Assembly (NCBI GenBank): GCA_963812155.1
Contig: CAWETW010000002.1
Span: 432,681 to 496,680, forward strand
Length of the DNA stretch: 64,000 nt
Source: Vulcanimicrobiota bacterium
GTDB taxonomy: Bacteria > Vulcanimicrobiota > Vulcanimicrobiia > Vulcanimicrobiales > Vulcanimicrobiaceae
Direction: 5' to 3'
Shown here: piece by piece, positions 31,987 through 64,000 of the stretch
Position numbering within the stretch: the stretch's first letter is position 1
Layout of the letters: the number at the start of each line of letters is the position of its first letter
Notes under the pieces: generated by a model
Told to the model about the DNA's origin: nothing
The model's input: the letters and a program-made list of their open reading frames with translations, nothing else
The model's database searches: none
Made by a program: the position numbers and the translations under genes

Positions 31987-33339
31987 CTAAGGATTCTGAC
32001 ACATGGCGACGAGCTGACGGATCTTGTTCCGATACGCCTCGTCACGTTCCATCTGGTCTTTGATCTTGTCGCGCGCGTACATGACCGTCGTATGGTCTTT
32101 CTTCCCGAACTCCCGCGCGATCTGCGGCAGCGAATACTCGGTGAGCACGGTTGCGACGTACATCGCGATCTGGCGGGGCGCCGCCAGGCGCTGATCCCGC
32201 CGCCCGTTGTCCATCTCCTTCACGGTCAGCCCGTGGGCACCGGCGACGGTTTCCTTGATCTTCGCGATCGTGACCCGCTGGAGCGGCGCGTTGGCAACGG
32301 CGCTCTTGAGCACTTCGGCAGCGAGATCGATGGTGATCGGCGAGCGCGTCAGCGAGGCGTAGGCAACGACCCGAATCAGGGCGCCTTCGAGTTCGCGGAT
32401 GTTCGACGGGATGACCTTAGCGATGAACGAGGTCACCTCGTCGGGGACGGGGATCTTTTCGCTCTCGGCCTTCTTGCGCAAGATGGCTTCCCGAGTCTCG
32501 AGGTCCGGTGCCTGGATGTCGGTGAGCAGACCCCATTCGAAGCGCGATCGAAGGCGTGACTCGAGCGTCTGGATTTCCTTGGGTGGACGATCCGAGGAGA
32601 TGATTAACTGACGCCCGGATTCGTGCAGAGCGTTGAATGTATGGAAGAACTCTTCTTGCGTGGTTTCCTTTCCGGCCAAGAACTGAATGTCGTCGATGAG
32701 AAGCACGTCGACTTGGCGATAGCGATTGCGGAACTCGGGCGTCCGGTTGTTTTGCAGCGCGATAATAAATTCGTTGGTGAACTTTTCGCACGTAAGATAC
32801 ACGACGTTGGCGCTGGGGTTGTCGAGCATGACGCGATGGCCGATTGCGTGCATCAGGTGCGTCTTGCCCAATCCGACGCCGCCGTAGAGAAACAGCGGAT
32901 TATAGGCACGCGCGGGCGCGCTCGCAACCGCCTGCGAAGCTGCGTGGGCGAAGCGGTTGGAATTGCCGACGACGAACTCCTCAAACGTATAGCGGACGTT
33001 GAGGTTGGCGGTGCGCAGCTCTTCGGGGGCGCGCGCCGAGTGCGGCGGAACGGCGGCCGTCGTTTCGACGGGTTCCGCTACCGACAACCGCAACTCGAGA
33101 TCGGTTCCGAAGACGGCTCTTAATACGTCGATAATCTGCGCTTGCAGTTTCGTACCGACCCACTCGCGCGCAAACTTGCTGTGCACGGCGAGATGCAACT
33201 CGTTTCCGTGCAGACCGACGAAGCGCATCGGCTTGATCCACATCTCGAATACGGGTTTGGAAAAACTCGCTTCGAGCGTTCCCAACGCCGACTGCCACAA
33301 TTCGTTCGAGACGTCGGAATTGCCGAGCGCAAGCGCCAT
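31987..33339 (-). CDS. dnaA: Chromosomal replication initiator
   Basis: YNPLFLYGGVGLGKTHL, LLIDDIQF, RLRSRFEWGL, KKDHTTV. Confidence 0.98.
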   Translation of the reverse strand: MALALGNSDVSNELWQSALGTLEASFSKPVFEMWIKPMRFVGLHGNELHLAVHSKFAREWVGTKLQAQIIDVLRAVFGTDLELRLSVAEPVETTAAVPPHSARAPEELRTANLNVRYTFEEFVVGNSNRFAHAASQAVASAPARAYNPLFLYGGVGLGKTHLMHAIGHRVMLDNPSANVVYLTCEKFTNEFIIALQNNRTPEFRNRYRQVDVLLIDDIQFLAGKETTQEEFFHTFNALHESGRQLIISSDRPPKEIQTLESRLRSRFEWGLLTDIQAPDLETREAILRKKAESEKIPVPDEVTSFIAKVIPSNIRELEGALIRVVAYASLTRSPITIDLAAEVLKSAVANAPLQRVTIAKIKETVAGAHGLTVKEMDNGRRDQRLAAPRQIAMYVATVLTEYSLPQIAREFGKKDHTTVMYARDKIKDQMERDEAYRNKIRQLVAMCQNP

Positions 33340-51349: not shown

Positions 51350-52219
51350 TTATCCCGTTGCGTCTTCGCCGAGCAGCAAATCGCCCAGCCGAATGAGATC
51401 GTCCTCGCCGGAAAAACGAAACTCGATGCGGCCGCCGCGCCCGTAGCGCACCAACGCGACGTGCGTTGCAAAACGTTCGCGCAGCCGCGTTTCGAACGAC
51501 TGCTCGTCGGCGGTCAACGGATGCATTGCAGGCCGTACCGGCGATGCGCCGGCGCTATCCTGCGCGGCGATTCGTTCGAGCGCCCGCACGGTCAATGCGT
51601 CCCGCACGGCCCGCTCGGCGAGCGCCTGGCGATCCGCGGGAGCGGCGGCAAGCAGCGCGCGCGCGTGACCCGGGGAGAGCCGCCCGCCGGCGACCATCGC
51701 CTTAACGCCGTCGGGCAGCGCCAGCAACCGCAGCGCGTTGGTAACGGCGGGCCGGCTCTTGCCGACGCGGCGCGCGACCTCTTCCTGCGTCAACCCGAAC
51801 TCGTCGATGAGGTGTTGGAATCCCGCCGACTCCTCGAGCGGGTTGAGATTTTCGCGTTGCAGGTTCTCAATGAGCGCGACTTCGAGCGCGTCGCGGTCGT
51901 CGCTCGTTCGCAGGATCGCAGGTATCGTCGTCAGTCCCAGCGATGCGCAAGCGCGCCAGCGGCGCTCGCCGGCGATAAGTTCGAAGGCATCACCGCGGCG
52001 CCGTACGATGATCGGGACGAGCACGCCATATTCCGCGATCGAAGCCTGGAGTTCGTCGAGCGGATCGCGCTCGAACGAGGTGCGCGGCTGATACGGATTG
52101 GGTGTGATGCGATCGACGGGAATCTCGCGCGGCGGCTCGCGCTCGGAACTTGGCCGTGCGGCCGAATCCCCGAGCAACGCCCCCAGCCCGCGGCCCAAAC
52201 CGCGTCGCGGAGCGCTCAC
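51350..52219 (-). CDS. parB: Chromosome partitioning protein ParB
   Basis: GLGRGLGALL, NPYQPR, IAGERRWRA, ENLQRENL, HTH GKSRPAVTNALRLL. Confidence 0.95.
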   Translation of the reverse strand: MSAPRRGLGRGLGALLGDSAARPSSEREPPREIPVDRITPNPYQPRTSFERDPLDELQASIAEYGVLVPIIVRRRGDAFELIAGERRWRACASLGLTTIPAILRTSDDRDALEVALIENLQRENLNPLEESAGFQHLIDEFGLTQEEVARRVGKSRPAVTNALRLLALPDGVKAMVAGGRLSPGHARALLAAAPADRQALAERAVRDALTVRALERIAAQDSAGASPVRPAMHPLTADEQSFETRLRERFATHVALVRYGRGGRIEFRFSGEDDLIRLGDLLLGEDATG

Positions 52220-52989
52220 GTGCGCGCTCCGGCCGGCTCGAGCACCTCGCGCGCCAGTGCCACGTACGCCTGTGCGCCGCGGCTCTTTGGATCGAAAAGA
52301 ATGACTGGTTTGCCGAAGGACGGCGCCTCCGAGATGCGTACGTTGCGCGGAATCTGCGTCTTGAAAATCTGATCCGGAAAAAACTTGACGAGTTCTTCGA
52401 AGACTTCGGCCGCCAGTCGCGTGCGTCCGTCGAACATCGTGACGAGCACGCCGCTCACGCGCAGCGACGGATTGAGCGCTTCGCGTACGCGCGCAACGAC
52501 GCCGGTCAACTGCGATAAGCCTTCGAGCGCATAGTATTCCGCCTGCACGGGAATCAGGCACTCGTGTGCGGCCGTCAGCGCGTTGATCGTGAGCAGTCCG
52601 AGCGACGGCGGACAATCGATCAGCACGAAATCGTAGCGATCGGCGATCGGGGAAACGGCTTGCCGCAGGCGGGTTTCGCGCGACATGGCCGAGACGAGTT
52701 CGATTTCCGCACCGGCAAGATTGATCGTCGCGGGCACGAGAAAAAGCCCCTCGATCTCGGTTGCAACCGCGACGTCGTCGATCGACGCTTCCTGGAGCAG
52801 CACGTCGTAGACGTCGCGCTCGAGCTGCGTTTTTGAGATCCCGAGACCGGTCGTGGCGTTGCCCTGCGGATCCGCGTCGATGACGAGCACGCGTTTGCCT
52901 TGCACGGCAAGTGCGGCACCGAGATTCACGGCGGTCGTGCTTTTACCGACGCCGCCCTTTTGATTCACGAGTGCGATGATGCGCGACAG
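52216..52989 (-). CDS. parA: Chromosome partitioning ATPase ParA/Soj (probable CTG start)
   Basis: NQKGGVGKSTT, DPQGNAT, DCPPSLG, EAPSFG. Confidence 0.95.
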   Translation of the reverse strand: MSRIIALVNQKGGVGKSTTAVNLGAALAVQGKRVLVIDADPQGNATTGLGISKTQLERDVYDVLLQEASIDDVAVATEIEGLFLVPATINLAGAEIELVSAMSRETRLRQAVSPIADRYDFVLIDCPPSLGLLTINALTAAHECLIPVQAEYYALEGLSQLTGVVARVREALNPSLRVSGVLVTMFDGRTRLAAEVFEELVKFFPDQIFKTQIPRNVRISEAPSFGKPVILFDPKSRGAQAYVALAREVLEPAGART

Positions 52990-52993
52990 TCTC

Positions 52994-54388
52994 TTATCTC
53001 CTCGTCACGGCACCGCGTTCCGATTCGCGCCAGTACCTTTCCAGGAGACGCAGCAGCGCGGTGCGCTCGTTACGCTCGGGCGAGTCGGTAACCTGCTCGA
53101 ACAACCATTGCAGCGCCGCGCCGACGCGGCGGTCGCCGCGAAAACCCGCCGGCGCTTCGCCACGGGCCACCAGCGCGGCGATGACCTCGTCGCCGCCGAC
53201 GGCGAGATCGGTGATGGAAAAGGCGGGCTTTCGCGCGATCTCCTCGAGGACGCGCCCGGCAAAGCGCTCGTTATGATCGCCGCGCTCGGGAAGCCCCGAG
53301 CCGCGCACGTCGGCGCGCCGTAATGCGAACAAGTGTTCGATATTCTCCACGCCGATGCGGCGGATGAAGCGTCGAACCGCGGCGTCGCTCATCGACTCGT
53401 CGGTCGAAAACATGTGCTGCCGCACGAGGCGTTCGACTCGCTGGACCGTGTCGTTGGAAAACCGGAAGCGTTCGAGCATCGAGCGAGCCATGTCGCCGCC
53501 GACGATCTCGTGGCGATAAAAATGCGGTCCGTCCTTCGTTCGCGGCTTCCCGACGTCGTGCAGTAAGGCGGCCAAGCGCAATAGAGGATCGCCGGGCGGC
53601 GTTGCGTCGACCGTTGCCATCGCGTGGTGCCAGACGTCGTACGCGTGCCACTCGTTCTGCTCGACGCCGACACCTTCCACGAGTTCGGGCCAGAGGTGCG
53701 CGAGAACGCCGGTCGCGCGCAGCAGTTCGAGGCCGACGGACGGGCGCTCGGCCAAGGTGAACAGCTTGACGAACTCGTCGTGGACCCGTTCGGCCGACAC
53801 GGTCCTGACGAGCGGCGCGGCGGCTGCCATTGCCGCACGGGTTTCGGGCGTCGCTTCGTAGTCGAAGCGCCCGGCGAACTGCGCGGCGCGCACCATGCGC
53901 AGCGGATCCTCTTCGAACGTGTTTGGGGCGAGGATGTCGATTCTACGCGCGCGGATGTCGGCCGCGCCCCCGAAGGGGTCGATAAGCTGGCCGGAGGGCA
54001 GGGCGCAGGCGATCATATTCATGCGAAAATCCCGGCGCGCAAGGTCGTCCTCGAGTGGGACGTCCGGACCCCCCTGGACCTCGAAGTCGCGGTGCCCCGG
54101 GCCGACCGAACGCTCGCGTCGCGGAAGGGCGACGTCGACCGTTTCGCCTCCGGCCGTCAGTTTGAGAATGGAAAACGATGCTCCAACCCGGTCGACGCGG
54201 CCAAGCCGCTCGAGCTTCTCGACGAGGTCGTCGAGCGCGACCCCGGTGACGACGTAATCTGAGTCCGCCACGATGCCTGCCCCGGTTTCGGCTGCCCGAA
54301 TCTCGTCGCGAACTCTGCCGCCGACGGCGTACAGGCAGCCTTGCGGCAGGGCGCCGATCAGGCGTTCGTCCAGGGGGCGTAGTTTCAC
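52994..54388 (-). CDS. cca: tRNA nucleotidyltransferase (CCA-adding-like) with HD domain
   Basis: GGRVRD..DSD, EDDLARRDF, EDPLRMVRA, LLHDVGKP. Confidence 0.85.
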   Translation of the reverse strand: MKLRPLDERLIGALPQGCLYAVGGRVRDEIRAAETGAGIVADSDYVVTGVALDDLVEKLERLGRVDRVGASFSILKLTAGGETVDVALPRRERSVGPGHRDFEVQGGPDVPLEDDLARRDFRMNMIACALPSGQLIDPFGGAADIRARRIDILAPNTFEEDPLRMVRAAQFAGRFDYEATPETRAAMAAAAPLVRTVSAERVHDEFVKLFTLAERPSVGLELLRATGVLAHLWPELVEGVGVEQNEWHAYDVWHHAMATVDATPPGDPLLRLAALLHDVGKPRTKDGPHFYRHEIVGGDMARSMLERFRFSNDTVQRVERLVRQHMFSTDESMSDAAVRRFIRRIGVENIEHLFALRRADVRGSGLPERGDHNERFAGRVLEEIARKPAFSITDLAVGGDEVIAALVARGEAPAGFRGDRRVGAALQWLFEQVTDSPERNERTALLRLLERYWRESERGAVTRR

Positions 54389-54412
54389 GGAAAACTACCC
54401 GGTGAAACAACT
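54382..54412. repeat. Left copy of 31-bp inverted repeat with parS-like half-sites
   Basis: GTTTCACGGAAAACTACCCGGTGAAACAACT; 27/31 match to reverse complement of 54761-54791. Confidence 0.85.
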
Positions 54413-54750
54413 CGCTCGCCCGCACCGTACCGCTCGAGCATTTCCGCGAAGCGGCCGTGGGAATGGTCGTCGATCTCTTCCCACGGAAGCCGCGCGAGCA
54501 TCGGGCCCAAGATCGAGCGCAGCGCTTCGCCGCGGATCATCAGCTGGAAGTAGTGCCGGCCGCCGTGGTGGTACGGTCCGTAGAGGCGCGACCAGCGGAT
54601 CCTGTCATTCAGCCACAACAGCAGGCGCTCGTGGCGCACGTGCATCCGCAGGGTCACTTGCGGTTGCTTTCCATCGCCGCCGAAGTGCCCTTCGCCGATC
54701 AGCAGACCCAAAATGACGCCCTTTTCAAAATCCGACAGCGACGATTCCAC
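54385..54750 (-). CDS. Small single-motif LAGLIDADG-like protein (121 aa)
   Basis: GGGAGG RBS before GTG; FEKGVILGLLIGEGHF helix followed by strand-helix-strand-strand-helix pattern. Confidence 0.7.
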   Translation of the reverse strand: MESSLSDFEKGVILGLLIGEGHFGGDGKQPQVTLRMHVRHERLLLWLNDRIRWSRLYGPYHHGGRHYFQLMIRGEALRSILGPMLARLPWEEIDDHSHGRFAEMLERYGAGERVVSPGSFP

Positions 54751-54760
54751 GCGGCCTCCC

Positions 54761-54791
54761 AGTTGTTTCACCGGGAGGTTCGCCGTGAAAC
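54761..54791. repeat. Right copy of 31-bp inverted repeat with parS-like half-sites
   Basis: AGTTGTTTCACCGGGAGGTTCGCCGTGAAAC. Confidence 0.85.
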
Positions 54792-54870
54792 CATGGCTCC
54801 CCCCAAGACCCGGCACGCCGCCGGCACGACGGCCGGCTACCCTGTCGTCATAGGATTGGAGGTTCCGCTC

Positions 54871-55866
54871 GTGACGTCACGCTTTGCCGCAATGGCCGCC
54901 GCCCTTTCGTTGATGCTTTCAGCCTGTTCCCAAGCGCCGTCTTCGCTCGATCCGTCCACCTCGGCCGGCCCCGTTCTCCGGCGGCCCGGCGGGCCGGCGA
55001 AAGTGCCGCGCCGCGCCTCGTGGATGCGGCGCGACCTCAAGAACCCGCCGCTGCTCTACGTGACGAACGCCAATAGCGTCACGATGTACTCTGGTCTGGG
55101 CGGATCTGCGCTGACGCTCGTCGGCGAGATCTTCGGTTTCCAGGGCCCGGTCGGCGAATGCACCGACGCGCAGGGCGACGTCTTCGTCGCCGACGGTCCG
55201 GCACGCGTCATCGATGAGTACGCGTACGCAAGCATCGTGCCGAAAAACGTCATCACCGACAGACTCGGCGAGCCGTATGCCTGCGCGGTCGACGCCGCAT
55301 CCGGCCGCCTCGCCGTCACGAACCTCACAGATGCGGGAGGCGGCGAGCCCGGCAACGTCCTCGTTTACGCCTCGCCCACCGGTGCCCCGGTCGAATACTC
55401 CGACCCGCAGATAAACGAGCCGCTGTTCTGCACGTTCGATCGAAAGGGCAACCTCGACGTCGACGCCTACGACAGCTCCTTTCACCCGGTCATCGCGCAA
55501 CTGCGGAATGCCGGTACGGAGCTCAAGACCCTCACGTTGAGCGGTTTGGACCCGAAAAAACTTTACGAACCGAGCGGCCTGGAACCCGCCGGCCCGGTCA
55601 TGATGTGGGGCGATACCGGCGACGTCAACCTCGACCAGTTGAAGATTACCGGCTCGACGGCGACGCTGGTTGCAACGCTGCCGCTGAGCAACCTCTACTC
55701 GATCGGCCAGTTCGTTACGTACGGTTCCGGAACGTCGGAAGTCGTCATCATTCCCGACTACAGCGGCAGCCGGTTGCAGACGTTCTCCTACCCGCAAGGG
55801 ACGCTGCTCTTCACGACGACCGACGGCATCTCGCTGCCGGTCGCCGCGGTAATCAGCCGGCCTTAA
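54871..55866 (+). CDS. Secreted beta-propeller-like lipoprotein
   Basis: GGAGG RBS, LSAC lipobox, repeated P.GECTD..GDVFVAD / P.ACAVD..SG.LAV blades. Confidence 0.75.
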   Translation: MTSRFAAMAAALSLMLSACSQAPSSLDPSTSAGPVLRRPGGPAKVPRRASWMRRDLKNPPLLYVTNANSVTMYSGLGGSALTLVGEIFGFQGPVGECTDAQGDVFVADGPARVIDEYAYASIVPKNVITDRLGEPYACAVDAASGRLAVTNLTDAGGGEPGNVLVYASPTGAPVEYSDPQINEPLFCTFDRKGNLDVDAYDSSFHPVIAQLRNAGTELKTLTLSGLDPKKLYEPSGLEPAGPVMMWGDTGDVNLDQLKITGSTATLVATLPLSNLYSIGQFVTYGSGTSEVVIIPDYSGSRLQTFSYPQGTLLFTTTDGISLPVAAVISRP

Positions 55867-56145
55867 AGAGCGTTACGAAGACTGGTCGCAGCACTGCGCC
55901 TTGAGCGTCTCTTTGGCCGAGGCATCGTAGTAGGCCGCCTGGACGAGCTTGAGATGAGCGGCGTGCCAGTTTGTTGACACTTTAACTGGGATGCGCGTAC
56001 CGTAAAGGCGGCCGCGGTCGGTAACGCCGGCAGCAAGGAACTCGGCCGTTTATCGTCGGGGTTTTCATCATGACCGCTCGCGTCGAATCGCCGTTCACGA
56101 CGAACGGCGTAAGGACCGGTCTGCCGAAGAGAAAGAATCGCACGT

Positions 56146-56580
56146 ATGACGCCGTTGGATCTGCGTATCCATCCGCCGCGCGGGCCGCGCGAAACGCTGT
56201 TGGGATTCTACTTTCTTGCGCGTACGGTCGATAAATTGCGTGCGGAGATTCCGGGAGGCAATCCCGGGCCGTTCCTCAATCACGATACCGGCTTCAGCGC
56301 TTACGTCGTGCGGCGCTTGGGGCTGGACATGAACGAACTGCGCGGCGCGGTTGCACGGGCCGCCGACGAAGATGCGTTGATCGAATGGCTGCGCGCGCGC
56401 ATCGCCGTCGAGAGCGCACCGGCCCTCAACGCCAAGCTCGAAACGTTCGTCGTCGAGCGCATGAAACCGGAAGATCAACGGCTCGTTCGCAGCCGCCACC
56501 CCGTTATGGCGAATCGGCCGGAATTATCGAAAATTCTCGATATTCTCGAGGCCGACGACACGACACTATCGGCTCGCTAA
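56146..56580 (+). CDS. DUF5069-like protein
   Basis: DLRIHPPRGPRE..LARTVDKLRA..G motif. Confidence 0.75.
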   Translation: MTPLDLRIHPPRGPRETLLGFYFLARTVDKLRAEIPGGNPGPFLNHDTGFSAYVVRRLGLDMNELRGAVARAADEDALIEWLRARIAVESAPALNAKLETFVVERMKPEDQRLVRSRHPVMANRPELSKILDILEADDTTLSAR

Positions 56581-56715
56581 GGCGCCCAGCGCCACGCCGA
56601 ACGCTACGCCGATTGCCAGTCCCATCGCGATCTGATGCATCGACGCACCGATGGCCACGCCGATCGCCGCTCCCAAGGCGATCCCCAATCCGAGACGATT
56701 GCTCCGCGATCTCAC
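56566..56715 (-). CDS. 49-aa glycine-zipper membrane peptide (not in ORF track)
   Basis: MRSRSNRLGLGIALGAAIGVAIGASMHQIAMGLAIGVAFGVALGALASR, GxxxG repeats. Confidence 0.6.
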   Translation of the reverse strand: MRSRSNRLGLGIALGAAIGVAIGASMHQIAMGLAIGVAFGVALGALASR

Positions 56716-56743
56716 CGTGTCAACGTTAGACCGCTGCGCCCGT

Positions 56744-57418
56744 TTACATGCAGAGCGGACGCTTTTGCGGAATGCCGCTGCGGCGTGGAAAGCGCGCCGG
56801 CGTCGGCGTTTTTTTGCGCAAAAGAACGATGCAGCGGCGATCGCCTACAGGATGCTCGCTCTCAAATTCCGCGCCCAGCACGAGTGCGGCATCGGCGAGC
56901 GTCGCGCGTTCGGCATCGTCGAGGGAGCCGCGTTGCAGTATCGCGACGCCGTTGGATGCGATGAACGGCAGCAGCAGTTCGGCGACCGCCGAAGCCGACG
57001 CAACCGCGCGAATCGTGCCGCAGGCGAACGCGTCGCGCAGCCGGCTATCGTGCGCCGCCGCTTCCGCGCGCGCCGTCACGACTTCTCCGCGCAGCCCGAG
57101 CGCCGAGAGGGCCGATTCCAGAAAGCGTGCCTTCTTGGCGCTCGACTCCACCAATGTCACGGGTACGCCGGTGGCGATAGCGAGCGGAATCGCCGGCAAA
57201 CCAGCGCCGGAGCCTACGTCGACGAGCGTCCGGGCCGCGTAGGGGACCGCGCTGAGACTGTCGAGCAGATGCGGGACGAATGCGTCGGGCGTCTTTGCAC
57301 CGGTGAGGTTGAACGATCGATTTGCCTCGAGCACGAGTTGCGCGTACGTCGCGAGCGGCGCGACGATGCTTGGCTCGACGCCGGCGGCGGCGAGCAGTTC
57401 GGCGACGGCGTCGTTCAA
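56744..57418 (-). CDS. rsmG: 16S rRNA m7G527 methyltransferase
   Basis: [26 protein letters not shown] start overlaps mnmG stop. Confidence 0.93.
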
Positions 57419-59268
57419 CGGGCGGCGGTTTGGCGCGCGCGGTGTACGAACAATCCGACGATTGCGACGTCGGAAGGCGTGACGCCCGGAATGCGGCCGG
57501 CCGATCCGAGCGTTCGCGGCCGCTGGCGCGTCAGTTTTTCGCGTGCTTCGCGTGAAAGCGCGGCAATCGCCGCATAGTCGAACGCGTCCGGAATCGCAAC
57601 GTCGTCGCGCTTGGCGGCGTTTTCTATTGCAGTCATCTCGCGTCGAACGTACCCTTCGCACTTAATTTCGATCGCAACGCGTTCGCCGGTGTCGCCGTAG
57701 AGCGGCGGATCGAACGCGCCGTGTACATCTTCGAAACTCAAGGCCGGGCGGCGCAGCGCGTCGGCAATCGTGGCGCCGGCATCGAACGCATCGTCCCCGA
57801 TGCGCCGCCGAACGAGGCGCGTCGTGCGCGCGCGCGTCATTCCTTCGCGTAACCGGCTTTGCCGCTCTTCGAAGGCGTCCCAGGCTTCGTCGTCGACGAG
57901 CCCTGCCGCGCGACCGATCGGCGTCAGACGCGTGTCGGCGTTGTCGTGGCGCAGTATAACTCGATGCTCGGCGCGCGACGTCAGCATCCGGTACGGCTCG
58001 TCGACGCCTTTGGTGACGAGATCGTCGACGAGCACGCCGGCGTACGCGTCGCTGCGCGCGAGCCGCACCGGCGACGTTCCACACGAGGCGCGCGCCGCGT
58101 TGATGCCGGCGATGAGCCCCTGCGCCGCGGCCTCTTCATAGCCCGACGTTCCGTTCAGTTGACCGCAATGGTAGAGACCGGCGATGCGATGCGTTTCGAG
58201 CGTGTCGCGCAGTTCCGTCGGAGGAACCATGTCGTACTCGACGGCGTAGCCGGCGCGCAGCATCGTGCACGATTCGAGCCCCGGCAGCGTACGCAACATG
58301 GCAAGCTGCACGTCGGCGGGAAGCGACGTCGAAAAACCGCCGACGTACAGGGTGGGCTCGTCCCATCCTTCGGGCTCGACGAAGACTTGGTGGGTGGGAT
58401 TGTGCGCGAACTTTACGACCTTGTCTTCGATCGACGGGCAATACCGCGGTCCGATGCCGGCAATGAGATCGAGTCCGTAGAGCGGCGAGCGGTGAAGGTT
58501 CGAACGGACGAGCGCGTGGGTGCGTTCGTTGGTCTGCGTGACGTAACAGTTCAGTTGCGGGCCGGCGAATCGGGGCTCGCTGCGATACGAGAAGAGCAGC
58601 GGACGCGCGCTCGGCGGTTGCTCGAGCATCGCCGCTGGATCGACGGTCGTCTTGTCGATGCGCGGAGGGGTTCCGGTCTTCAGCCGCCTGGTCGGAAAGC
58701 CGGCCCGCCGCAACGCTACGGCTAGCCCGTTCGCGGGCGCTTCGCCGAAGCGACCCTCGGCCCGGACGTCGCTGCCGCGAAACGATTTACCGCCCAGAAA
58801 CGTGCCGGTCGCGAGCACCACCCGGCGCGCGCAGAAGCGCTCGCCGCCGGCGCCCGCGACGCCGCGCACCGCGCCGGCTTCGATGATGAGATCCTCCACC
58901 AATGCGCGCACGATGGTGAGATTGCGCTGCGCGCGGAGTTCTCTGAGTGCCTCGCGCGCATAGGCCGGCTTGTCCATTTGCTGGCGCAGCGCCCGCACCG
59001 CGGGCCCTTTGCTCTCGTTGAGAAAGCGCGCGTGCAGGCTGCAACGGTCGGCTAAACGGCCCATCGCGCCGCCGAGTGCGTCGATTTCACGCACCAACTG
59101 CCCCTTCGCGCTGCCGCCGATCGACGGATTGCACGGAAGCGTGCAAATCTTGTCGGGATCGCCGGTCACGAGAAGCGTCGGTGCACCGATTCGCGCGGCG
59201 GCCAGCGCTGCCTCGACGCCGGCATGTCCGCCGCCGACCACGATGACGGCAGCGTCGTCGCCCGTCAC
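57415..59268 (-). CDS. mnmG: tRNA modification enzyme MnmG/GidA
   Basis: [48 protein letters not shown]. Confidence 0.97.
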
Positions 59269-63406: not shown

Positions 63407-63735
63407 TCAGGCCTGGTGCAGTGCCGACAAGAAGTCGGCGCGCAGCGCGGAGAAATCGGCGTGCGCCGCGGTTGGCCGCGCGACGATTACCATGCGAAGA
63501 GCACGCCCGGTCTCGGCGAGCGCATCGTTGACGATCGCCGCGAGACGGCGGCGGAATTTATTACGGACAACGGCTTTTCCGATCGCTTTGTTTACGGTGA
63601 TGCCGACCAGCGACGAGGCGTCGCGCGGCAAGGCATCGGTGAGGTAGAGGGTCAGGGTTCGGTCGCAGCGCGCCGGCCGTACCGCCGCAGGCGGGCGAAA
63701 TCCGCTCGGCGGCGCAGGCTGGCATAGCGGCGCAT
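63407..63735 (-). CDS. rnpA: RNase P protein component (apparent frameshift near 63660)
   Basis: LRRRADF N-terminus in one frame; GITVNKAIGKAVVRNKFRRRL in the next. Confidence 0.9.
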
Positions 63736-63869
63736 CAGACCGTCAGGCGGTGACGACCCTTCCTGCGGCGTCGCGCCAGCACGTTGCGGCCGCTCTTGGT
63801 GCTCATTCGCTCCAAGAATCCGTGCACGCGTTTGCGACGGCGGTTATGCGGCTGGTAGGTCCGCTTCAT
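63735..63869 (-). CDS. rpmH: 50S ribosomal protein bL34
   Basis: [22 protein letters not shown]...RRRKGRHRL. Confidence 0.98.
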
Positions 63870-63935
63870 CGAAACACTTCTCTCTTTAACAAAAATAACT
63901 GCCGCTGGCCGAACCCGGCGGCAGACAGGCCCTTG

Positions 63936-63965
63936 ATTATAGGCAGCCGCCGTTCGGAGCGTCAA
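63936..63965 (-). promoter_or_regulatory. Sigma70-type promoter for rpmH operon
   Basis: TTGACG, 18-nt spacer, TATAAT on minus strand. Confidence 0.8.
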
Positions 63966-64000
63966 GGACACGTGTCCGCACCGGCCGGCATTGAAGGAGG

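Follow-up and report, generated by a model that had tools for sequence, protein, structure and literature searches.

A small LAGLIDADG-fold gene linked to an extended parS-type element beside chromosomal parAB in several bacterial phyla

The window analysed, a stretch of 64,000 nucleotides from a Vulcanimicrobiota bacterium, carries near parA and parB two inverted copies of a 31-bp sequence on either side of a small LAGLIDADG-like gene. In the earlier note on this DNA, the copies were proposed to be an unusual centromere, operators of the enclosed protein, the ends of an invertible segment, or the paired arms of an mRNA in which the gene is looped out. The repeat itself is as described there. 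Of 31 bases, 27 match when 54382-54412 is set against the reverse complement of 54761-54791, and an inverted-repeat finder applied to the region 52000-58000 ranked the pair first (40-nt arms, 80%). Both copies have the form GTTTCAC-N13-GTGAAAC, with two exact matches in the window and none in 100 shuffles, and each contains the degenerate 16-mer quoted for it. Within the left copy are the TGA stop of the small gene (54387-54385) and, at 54388-54386, the GTG at which cca begins, as had also been noticed. No perfect parS had been noticed by eye elsewhere in the window, and there is none: no 16-mer of the window lies within three mismatches of the canonical site. None within two mismatches was found in the 2.96-Mb assembly (83.85% complete), where the two copies of the window are also the only GTTTCAC...GTGAAAC pairs when spacers of 0-60 are scanned.

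Table 1. Coordinates of the module and of its neighbours in the window.
Feature	Position	Strand	Remarks
Downstream extended parS (putative)	54382..54410	+	core 54382-54395 (GTTTCAC GGAAAAC) and extension 54396-54410
Upstream extended parS (putative)	54763..54791	-	core 54791-54778 (GTTTCAC GGCGAAC) and extension 54777-54763
Small LAGLIDADG-fold gene	54385..54750	-	121 aa from GTG 54750, the probable start; longer readings from 54771 or 54816
GGAGG, candidate ribosome-binding site	54755..54759	-	nearest relatives are of 121 aa
cca-like nucleotidyltransferase-HD gene	52994..54388	-	GTG start inside parS arm
parA	52216..52968	-	AAA_31, E 5e-65
parB	51350..52219	-	intact GERRxR motif; parS-type R and G specificity residues
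gidB (rsmG)	56744..57415	-	upstream border of variable slot
Proposed 22-bp LAGLIDADG-dimer site, downstream copy	54388..54409	+	predicted register from site and dimer data and I-CreI geometry (PMC3315327, PMC3413129)
Proposed 22-bp LAGLIDADG-dimer site, upstream copy	54764..54785	-	predicted register on the same basis

Read along the minus strand, gidA and gidB are followed by two opposite-strand inserts, the small gene, cca, parA and parB (Table 1). The small gene probably starts at the GTG behind GGAGG, which gives it the length of its nearest relatives. The upstream copy stops 3 bp short of the ribosome-binding site. The downstream copy overlaps the final codons and the stop of the small gene as well as the cca start, and its slot and orientation match the plain parS of many gene-free relatives. 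dnaA is about 22 kb from the module, and the sites are origin-proximal, beside parAB and in the slot of the relatives' parS. The two parS-type cores of the window have 2 and 3 mismatches out of 14 and fall outside the consensus rule of a 16-bp palindrome with about one mismatch; the sites of gene-free relatives are degenerate too. The two inserts are a predicted secreted-protein gene without a Pfam match (54901-55866) and a DUF5069 gene (56146-56580), and this slot between gidB and the module differs among relatives. dnaA and rpmH (window about 32518-33003 and 63735-63971) lie about 31 kb apart and do not adjoin.

The linkage of the element and the gene was followed from both sides. Searching GTDB genomes with the protein gave 178 confirmed relatives, of which the best 80, biased to the closest, were analysed. 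These 80 come from Vulcanimicrobiota, Deinococcota, Binatia-like lineages, Actinomycetota, Acidobacteriota, Bacillota, Elusimicrobiota and others, and an N13 element lies near the gene at 78 of them. At L107 and L108 the gene is present with no standard site. By the motif alone 123 metagenome stretches were found, 80 of them with flanks, and the gene is present in 71 of these 80. Among the nine loci without it, three break off within 100 bases, one lies on the same contig as a further site 1.7 kb away, and five lack the gene in the stretch. Canonical parS plus extension is seen without the gene in the stretches L164, L167 and L200, where the gene may lie farther away or have been lost.

At gene-free par loci the extension was found in none of 86 (388 kb), and the same slot in the four lineages holds a plain 14-mer (28 of 33, 12 of 15, 23 of 26 and 12 of 12 loci). 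Within the family of the window, the element is present in 28 of 30 gene-bearing members vs none of the 33 gene-free ones. On the host tree the gene and the element travel together in 11-12 of 12 independent pairs, L083 and L112 having been left out as duplicates (sign test, p about 0.001). The motif occurs solely beside the gene, in 1-4 copies, in 47 of 50 whole gene-bearing genomes, and two of the 50 have an exact canonical parS. In Solirubrobacterales the exact site is found in 12 of 62 gene-free and 0 of 9 gene-bearing genomes; since an exact match is too strict a control in this order, the loci were read directly.

The gene is patchily distributed, being found in 17 of 72 genomes of the family of the window, in 9 of 71 of an actinobacterial order and, for two samples taken at class level, at 3 of 29 and 18 of 30 gidB loci. 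On the 63-member host tree of the family its presence switches 13 times. It occupies the slots gidA-gidB, gidB-parA, before gidB, after parB or beside cca, following the parS position of the lineage, and 79 of 80 loci are within the gidB-parAB cluster; the exception, L039, is 36 kb from parB. In that Elusimicrobia locus (L039:3853-4357) two direct sites have non-parS cores, and a 17-nt inverted repeat is nearby. As read from sequence comparison, the module is real and conserved across phyla. The centromere and operator readings of the earlier note both survive, merged into one, since the slot is that of a centromere (plain parS in gene-free relatives) and the site is tied to the enclosed gene.

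Judging from the aligned sites, each repeat is a directional 29-bp element, in which a parS-type 14-mer of the lineage, with one perfect and one degenerate half, is followed by a 15-bp extension that terminates in GTGAAACAA. The consensus of 135 distinct sites reads GTTTCAC, GKNRWAC, six bases (nTkACG), GTGAAAC, A, A, with the outer arms fixed by the design of the search and their near-invariance inflated accordingly. Conservation ceases one to two bases past the right arm. The N13 spacing, which the earlier note had suggested comparing in relatives, proved to be conserved: in the best 80 loci a spacer of 13 occurs at 136 places and any other non-zero spacer at most once. Full sites number 304 vs 5 solo extensions; at L040 the extension occurs without the left arm, in two copies upstream of the gene.

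The core appears to follow the parS of the host lineage. In Vulcanimicrobiota and Deinococci, the 14-mer variants of gene-free loci match the cores of carriers of their own lineage. T. thermophilus ParB binds the Deinococcota/Deinococci-type core in EMSA, as given in PMC4409726; published ParB binding concerns this core type, and for the other cores the assignment as parS is putative. Elsewhere in the collection, GTTTCACGTTTTAC recurs in the parS slot of L244, L249, L250, L288, L290, L296 and L109, mostly gene-free loci of three phyla, and is possibly an unrecognised parS variant or a relic of a lost gene. Upstream of cca in L119 are four parS-like 14-mers, three of them inside a longer repeat spaced about 340-380 bp. 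A promoter reading of TTGACG, which is present in many extensions, was rejected, as no conserved -10 box was found downstream and no promoter-like site in the window stretch.

The description of each copy as two parS halves split by 13 bp has to be revised. The first 14 bp are already the parS of the lineage and the third half-site is an add-on; because gene-free loci have the plain 14-mer without the extension, the site is parS plus an add-on and not parS cut in two. Neither is it a symmetric split palindrome, since A follows the right arm in 135 of 135 protein-selected sites while T precedes the left arm in 35%. A single ParB dimer on the outer arms 13 bp apart, with or without bending by the small protein, would agree with two outer arms that are perfect, nearly invariant parS half-sites (an invariance inflated by the arm-based search) and with the binding of half-sites by ParB of some species, reported in PMC7022226. 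We consider such a split centromere very improbable, however, given the complete parS in the first 14 bp, the strict flanking A on the right arm that is absent on the left arm, the existence of solo extensions and an unchanged ParB. ParB looks alike with and without the gene, and carriers keep the arginine and glycine that mark parS specificity (mapped by motif), residues named as parS determinants in PMC7383237. A changed ParB specificity in carriers was rejected as an explanation, as no difference in ParB is visible.

Conservation of the inverted arrangement, another expectation of the earlier note, was found in the best 80 loci for Vulcanimicrobiota alone. The 27 loci of this phylum have 24 copies upstream and 24 downstream of the gene, inverted; in the other 53 loci, 89 of 89 copies are upstream, 86 of them in direct orientation. 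As the inverted bracket was seen in Vulcanimicrobiota alone, it is a local layout, and both inversion and RNA pairing fail as explanations. In all bracketed loci the gene points the same way, towards cca, which argues against an invertible segment. Contigs of four DNA sequencing runs show no strand-switching joint, although contigs cannot show its absence. For an mRNA duplex with the gene looped out, the covariation term is -0.41 over 16 loci; the duplex rests on invariant columns and its variable columns are often broken. The transcript of the window does fold the two copies together (z -3.2), and spacers are slightly more alike within a locus (9.0 vs 8.5 of 13; permutation p 0.01, ignoring kinship). 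Even so, that the copies are ends of an invertible segment or arms of such a duplex seems barely credible.

Searches of Pfam, NCBIfam and the sequences of solved structures gave no name for the small protein; weak Pfam matches were seen in 5 of 68 relatives, and 4,939 relatives were found at E <=0.001. Its LAGLIDADG-like nature, proposed from the sequence in the earlier note, is supported by an AlphaFold2 model (pLDDT 88.7) that matches LAGLIDADG endonucleases (Foldseek, VIA). In the fold comparison the best Z was 12.1 (rmsd 2.1, 104 aligned), with 10.0 for I-CreI and 5.0-7.8 for WhiA. The predicted homodimer scored 0.91 against 0.01 for the best of three controls; the mark applied is one that 20 of 30 solved pairs attain, as against 1 of 23 single chains, and the pass may reflect likeness to solved dimers. 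The dimer runs agreed in 100% of contacts at pLDDT of at least 91, with an interface formed by helix 1 and its invariant G18 and G22. The strand residues D33, Q36, H47, Y67, R72, Q76 and R80 are nearly invariant. We take E27 to be the acid at the catalytic position, from the motif, the aligned ranges and the I-CreI numbering. Of 211 loci, 198 have E or D here, and most copies may therefore be able to cut; the other 13 have A, Q, G, N or S, and all of them keep their sites. Presumably, by the motif, the small protein has methionine at the conserved glutamine position of I-CreI.

The small gene is under purifying selection like that on ParA and ParB, with dN/dS of 0.02-0.15 in the 15 measurable of 18 pairs (three were saturated). 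Its tree, of weak resolution, mostly tracks host groups. At L004 a tract comprising the 3' half of gidB, a neighbour gene and the small gene derives from the clade of the window (AU p 0.03). The 3' half of gidB, the secreted-protein gene and the LAGLIDADG gene are 65-81% like this clade and 58-72% like the kin of L004, and for gidA, parA, parB and most of cca the likeness is to L008 and L096 (75-84%); the gidB-cca region of L004 thus reads, from these likenesses, as a mosaic locus with a recombination tract between genera. The titles of L007, L035, L037 and L038 (Acidiferrales, Enterobacteriaceae) clash with gene order and trees, which point to Ca. Cybelea and Binatia-like lineages, and these labels look unreliable. 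P0122, P0209 and P0205 are two-domain fusions of the small-protein family or distant relatives. No canonical pseudo-dimer was predicted for P0122 (pTM 0.57, rmsd about 14 A), the relative orientation of its domains being ill-defined.

Taken together, we think it probable that the module is a fourth component of ParABS, in which a tamed homing endonuclease sits on half of parS and sets the time or the amount of ParB loading, in phyla from Deinococcota and Actinomycetota to Bacillota, Acidobacteriota and Vulcanimicrobiota; this would also explain the seeming lack of parS in these genomes. As to how it may act, we propose tentatively, with slightly more doubt than confidence, that the small protein binds as a homodimer to a predicted 22-bp site made of the extension and the right half of parS, competes there with ParB and represses its own gene. 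Homodimeric LAGLIDADG proteins read 22 bp, with contacts at positions 3-11 and four central bases without base contacts, according to PMC3315327 and PMC3413129. The dyad would then fall in the four variable bases after position +1 of the extension, and the invariant GGTGAAACA would occupy positions 3-11 of one half-site. The second subunit would lie on the right half of parS, leaving the perfect left arm to ParB. The fixed spacing would follow from this overlap of the dimer site with parS, and the predicted footprint would end conservation just after the right arm, as is seen. Two readers of the major groove on one half-site would exclude each other, which favours a gatekeeper. Self-repression is suggested by the position of the upstream copy, which abuts the ribosome-binding site, and it is likewise from position that an effect on ParB loading may be expected. 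The module can persist without cutting.

Against the dimer model, the two proposed half-sites share only about 4 of 9 positions, all of which are needed by ParB too, and in Thermoleophilia base -1 departs from the ParB and the dyad predictions alike in 8 of 8 sites. Covariation between residue 42 and the bases flanking the right arm, with raw counts of 99 of 110 against 3 of 58 sites, was rejected as evidence, because two supported independent pairs are left once kinship is considered (p 1), and the window does not follow the pattern. The acid retained by most copies, the non-canonical prediction for P0122, the five motif loci that lack the gene and the absence of a standard site at L107 and L108 also count against the model.

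The small protein could also be a helper of ParB, its dimer on the extension side bending the DNA or touching ParB and enabling it to load on a weakened parS. We regard this as rather unlikely, though it accounts for several observations. In three of four lineages, the right half of the core departs more from consensus when the gene is present (mean mismatches of 2.22 vs 1.55, 1.31 vs 0.35 and 4.0 vs 1.5), a comparison biased by the gathering of gene-free sites under a mismatch ceiling, and the left arm stays perfect in carriers. The excess of full sites over solo extensions and the rarity of the exact canonical site in gene-bearing genomes agree with a helper as well, and the Thermoleophilia core, which with its 4 mismatches would be hard for ParB alone, suits a helper better than a competitor. 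In Deinococci, however, the trend is reversed (1.26 with the gene vs 1.67 without). Close relatives repeatedly lose the gene, ParB shows no visible change, and the canonical 22-bp footprint of a dimer would overlap the groove read by ParB.

The patchy distribution, the 13 changes on the host tree (here of 63 rows) and the retained acid could instead be attributed to a selfish homing or addiction nuclease, which would cut plain parS or its surroundings and spread by repair, while carriers alter parS to escape. Irrespective of gene order, the gene is invariably placed in the parS slot, canonical parS is rare in carriers, and the L004 tract is one clear case of recombination between genera that includes the gene. 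That tract, however, also holds the neighbour gene, as ordinary recombination would, and the gene tree mostly tracks host groups. In homing, the target is intact in the gene-free allele and disrupted in the carrier; here the extension was found in carriers only, and none of the 86 gene-free alleles offers an intact target of that kind. L179 and L202 pair canonical cores with an intact acid, and L310 has a plain canonical site near the gene. The 13 acid-less copies belong to several clades and keep their sites, dN/dS is as for ParA and ParB, no broken copy was found in 55 gene-free genomes, and no relative was found in viral contigs. We judge a selfish nuclease unlikely. The small phage LAGLIDADG clusters in Atlas are look-alikes.

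With almost every copy immediately upstream of the gene and facing it, the protein could also be a simple autorepressor, its operator overlapping parS by chance and its true function lying elsewhere, with no effect on partition. The solo extensions of L040 and the module 36 kb from parB in L039 could be read in the same way. A register with parS that is fixed across phyla argues against this reading, however, as do copies as far as 560 bp upstream and the second copy at the 3' end of the gene in Vulcanimicrobiota; further, the 50 whole genomes have no other full sites and thus no regulon of the motif. A mere autorepressor appears quite improbable to us.

How does the module compare with known systems? 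Like chromosomal ParABS with its 16-bp parS, it is found with an origin-proximal gidB-parA-parB cluster and a ParB with CTPase motif and parS-type residues, and its core is the same as, or close to, the parS that gene-free relatives carry (T. thermophilus parSc, PMC4409726; ParB specificity, PMC7383237). Unlike in chromosomal ParABS, almost all parS-type sites close to the gene are lengthened by a constant extension containing a third half-site, whose presence varies together with that of a dedicated small gene. The fold (Z 8.0-10.0), the predicted helix dimer and the acid in most copies are shared with I-CreI, I-MsoI, I-TnaI, I-Vdi141I and I-CeuI. Unlike homodimeric LAGLIDADG homing endonucleases, however, no intron or intein was seen at the small gene, the presumed site is kept beside the gene and not destroyed, and the strand residues are nearly invariant across phyla, the acid being lost in 13 of 211 loci. 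A homing-endonuclease fold kept for a host role, with links to division and segregation, recalls WhiA, a domesticated regulator of LAGLIDADG origin, in which nuclease-type residues are lost and GACAC is read by a separate helix-turn-helix (PMC10243135). Unlike WhiA, a tandem LAGLIDADG protein with a C-terminal helix-turn-helix (same source), the small protein is a single domain of 121-128 aa that has no helix-turn-helix and keeps a conserved strand surface.

A second DNA-binding protein at or beside the site of a ParB-family protein is familiar from plasmids, as in P1, whose parS has an IHF site, and RK2 with KorA and KorB. In contrast to these plasmid systems of other sites and folds, the module joins a chromosomal parS and a linked LAGLIDADG-fold gene. 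We know of no protein besides ParB described as reading chromosomal parS, and a literature search found no other such reader. No description of the module was found in the largely open-access literature searched, and it is apparently undescribed. Among the carriers in culture are named strains of Deinococcus, Meiothermus and Calidithermus, which opens the question to direct experiment. Should the small protein turn out to be a nuclease, it would represent a selfish element directed at the bacterial centromere. If it is a dedicated reader of parS, it would provide a handle on the timing or limiting of ParB loading, and would account for genomes that have parAB but no recognisable parS.
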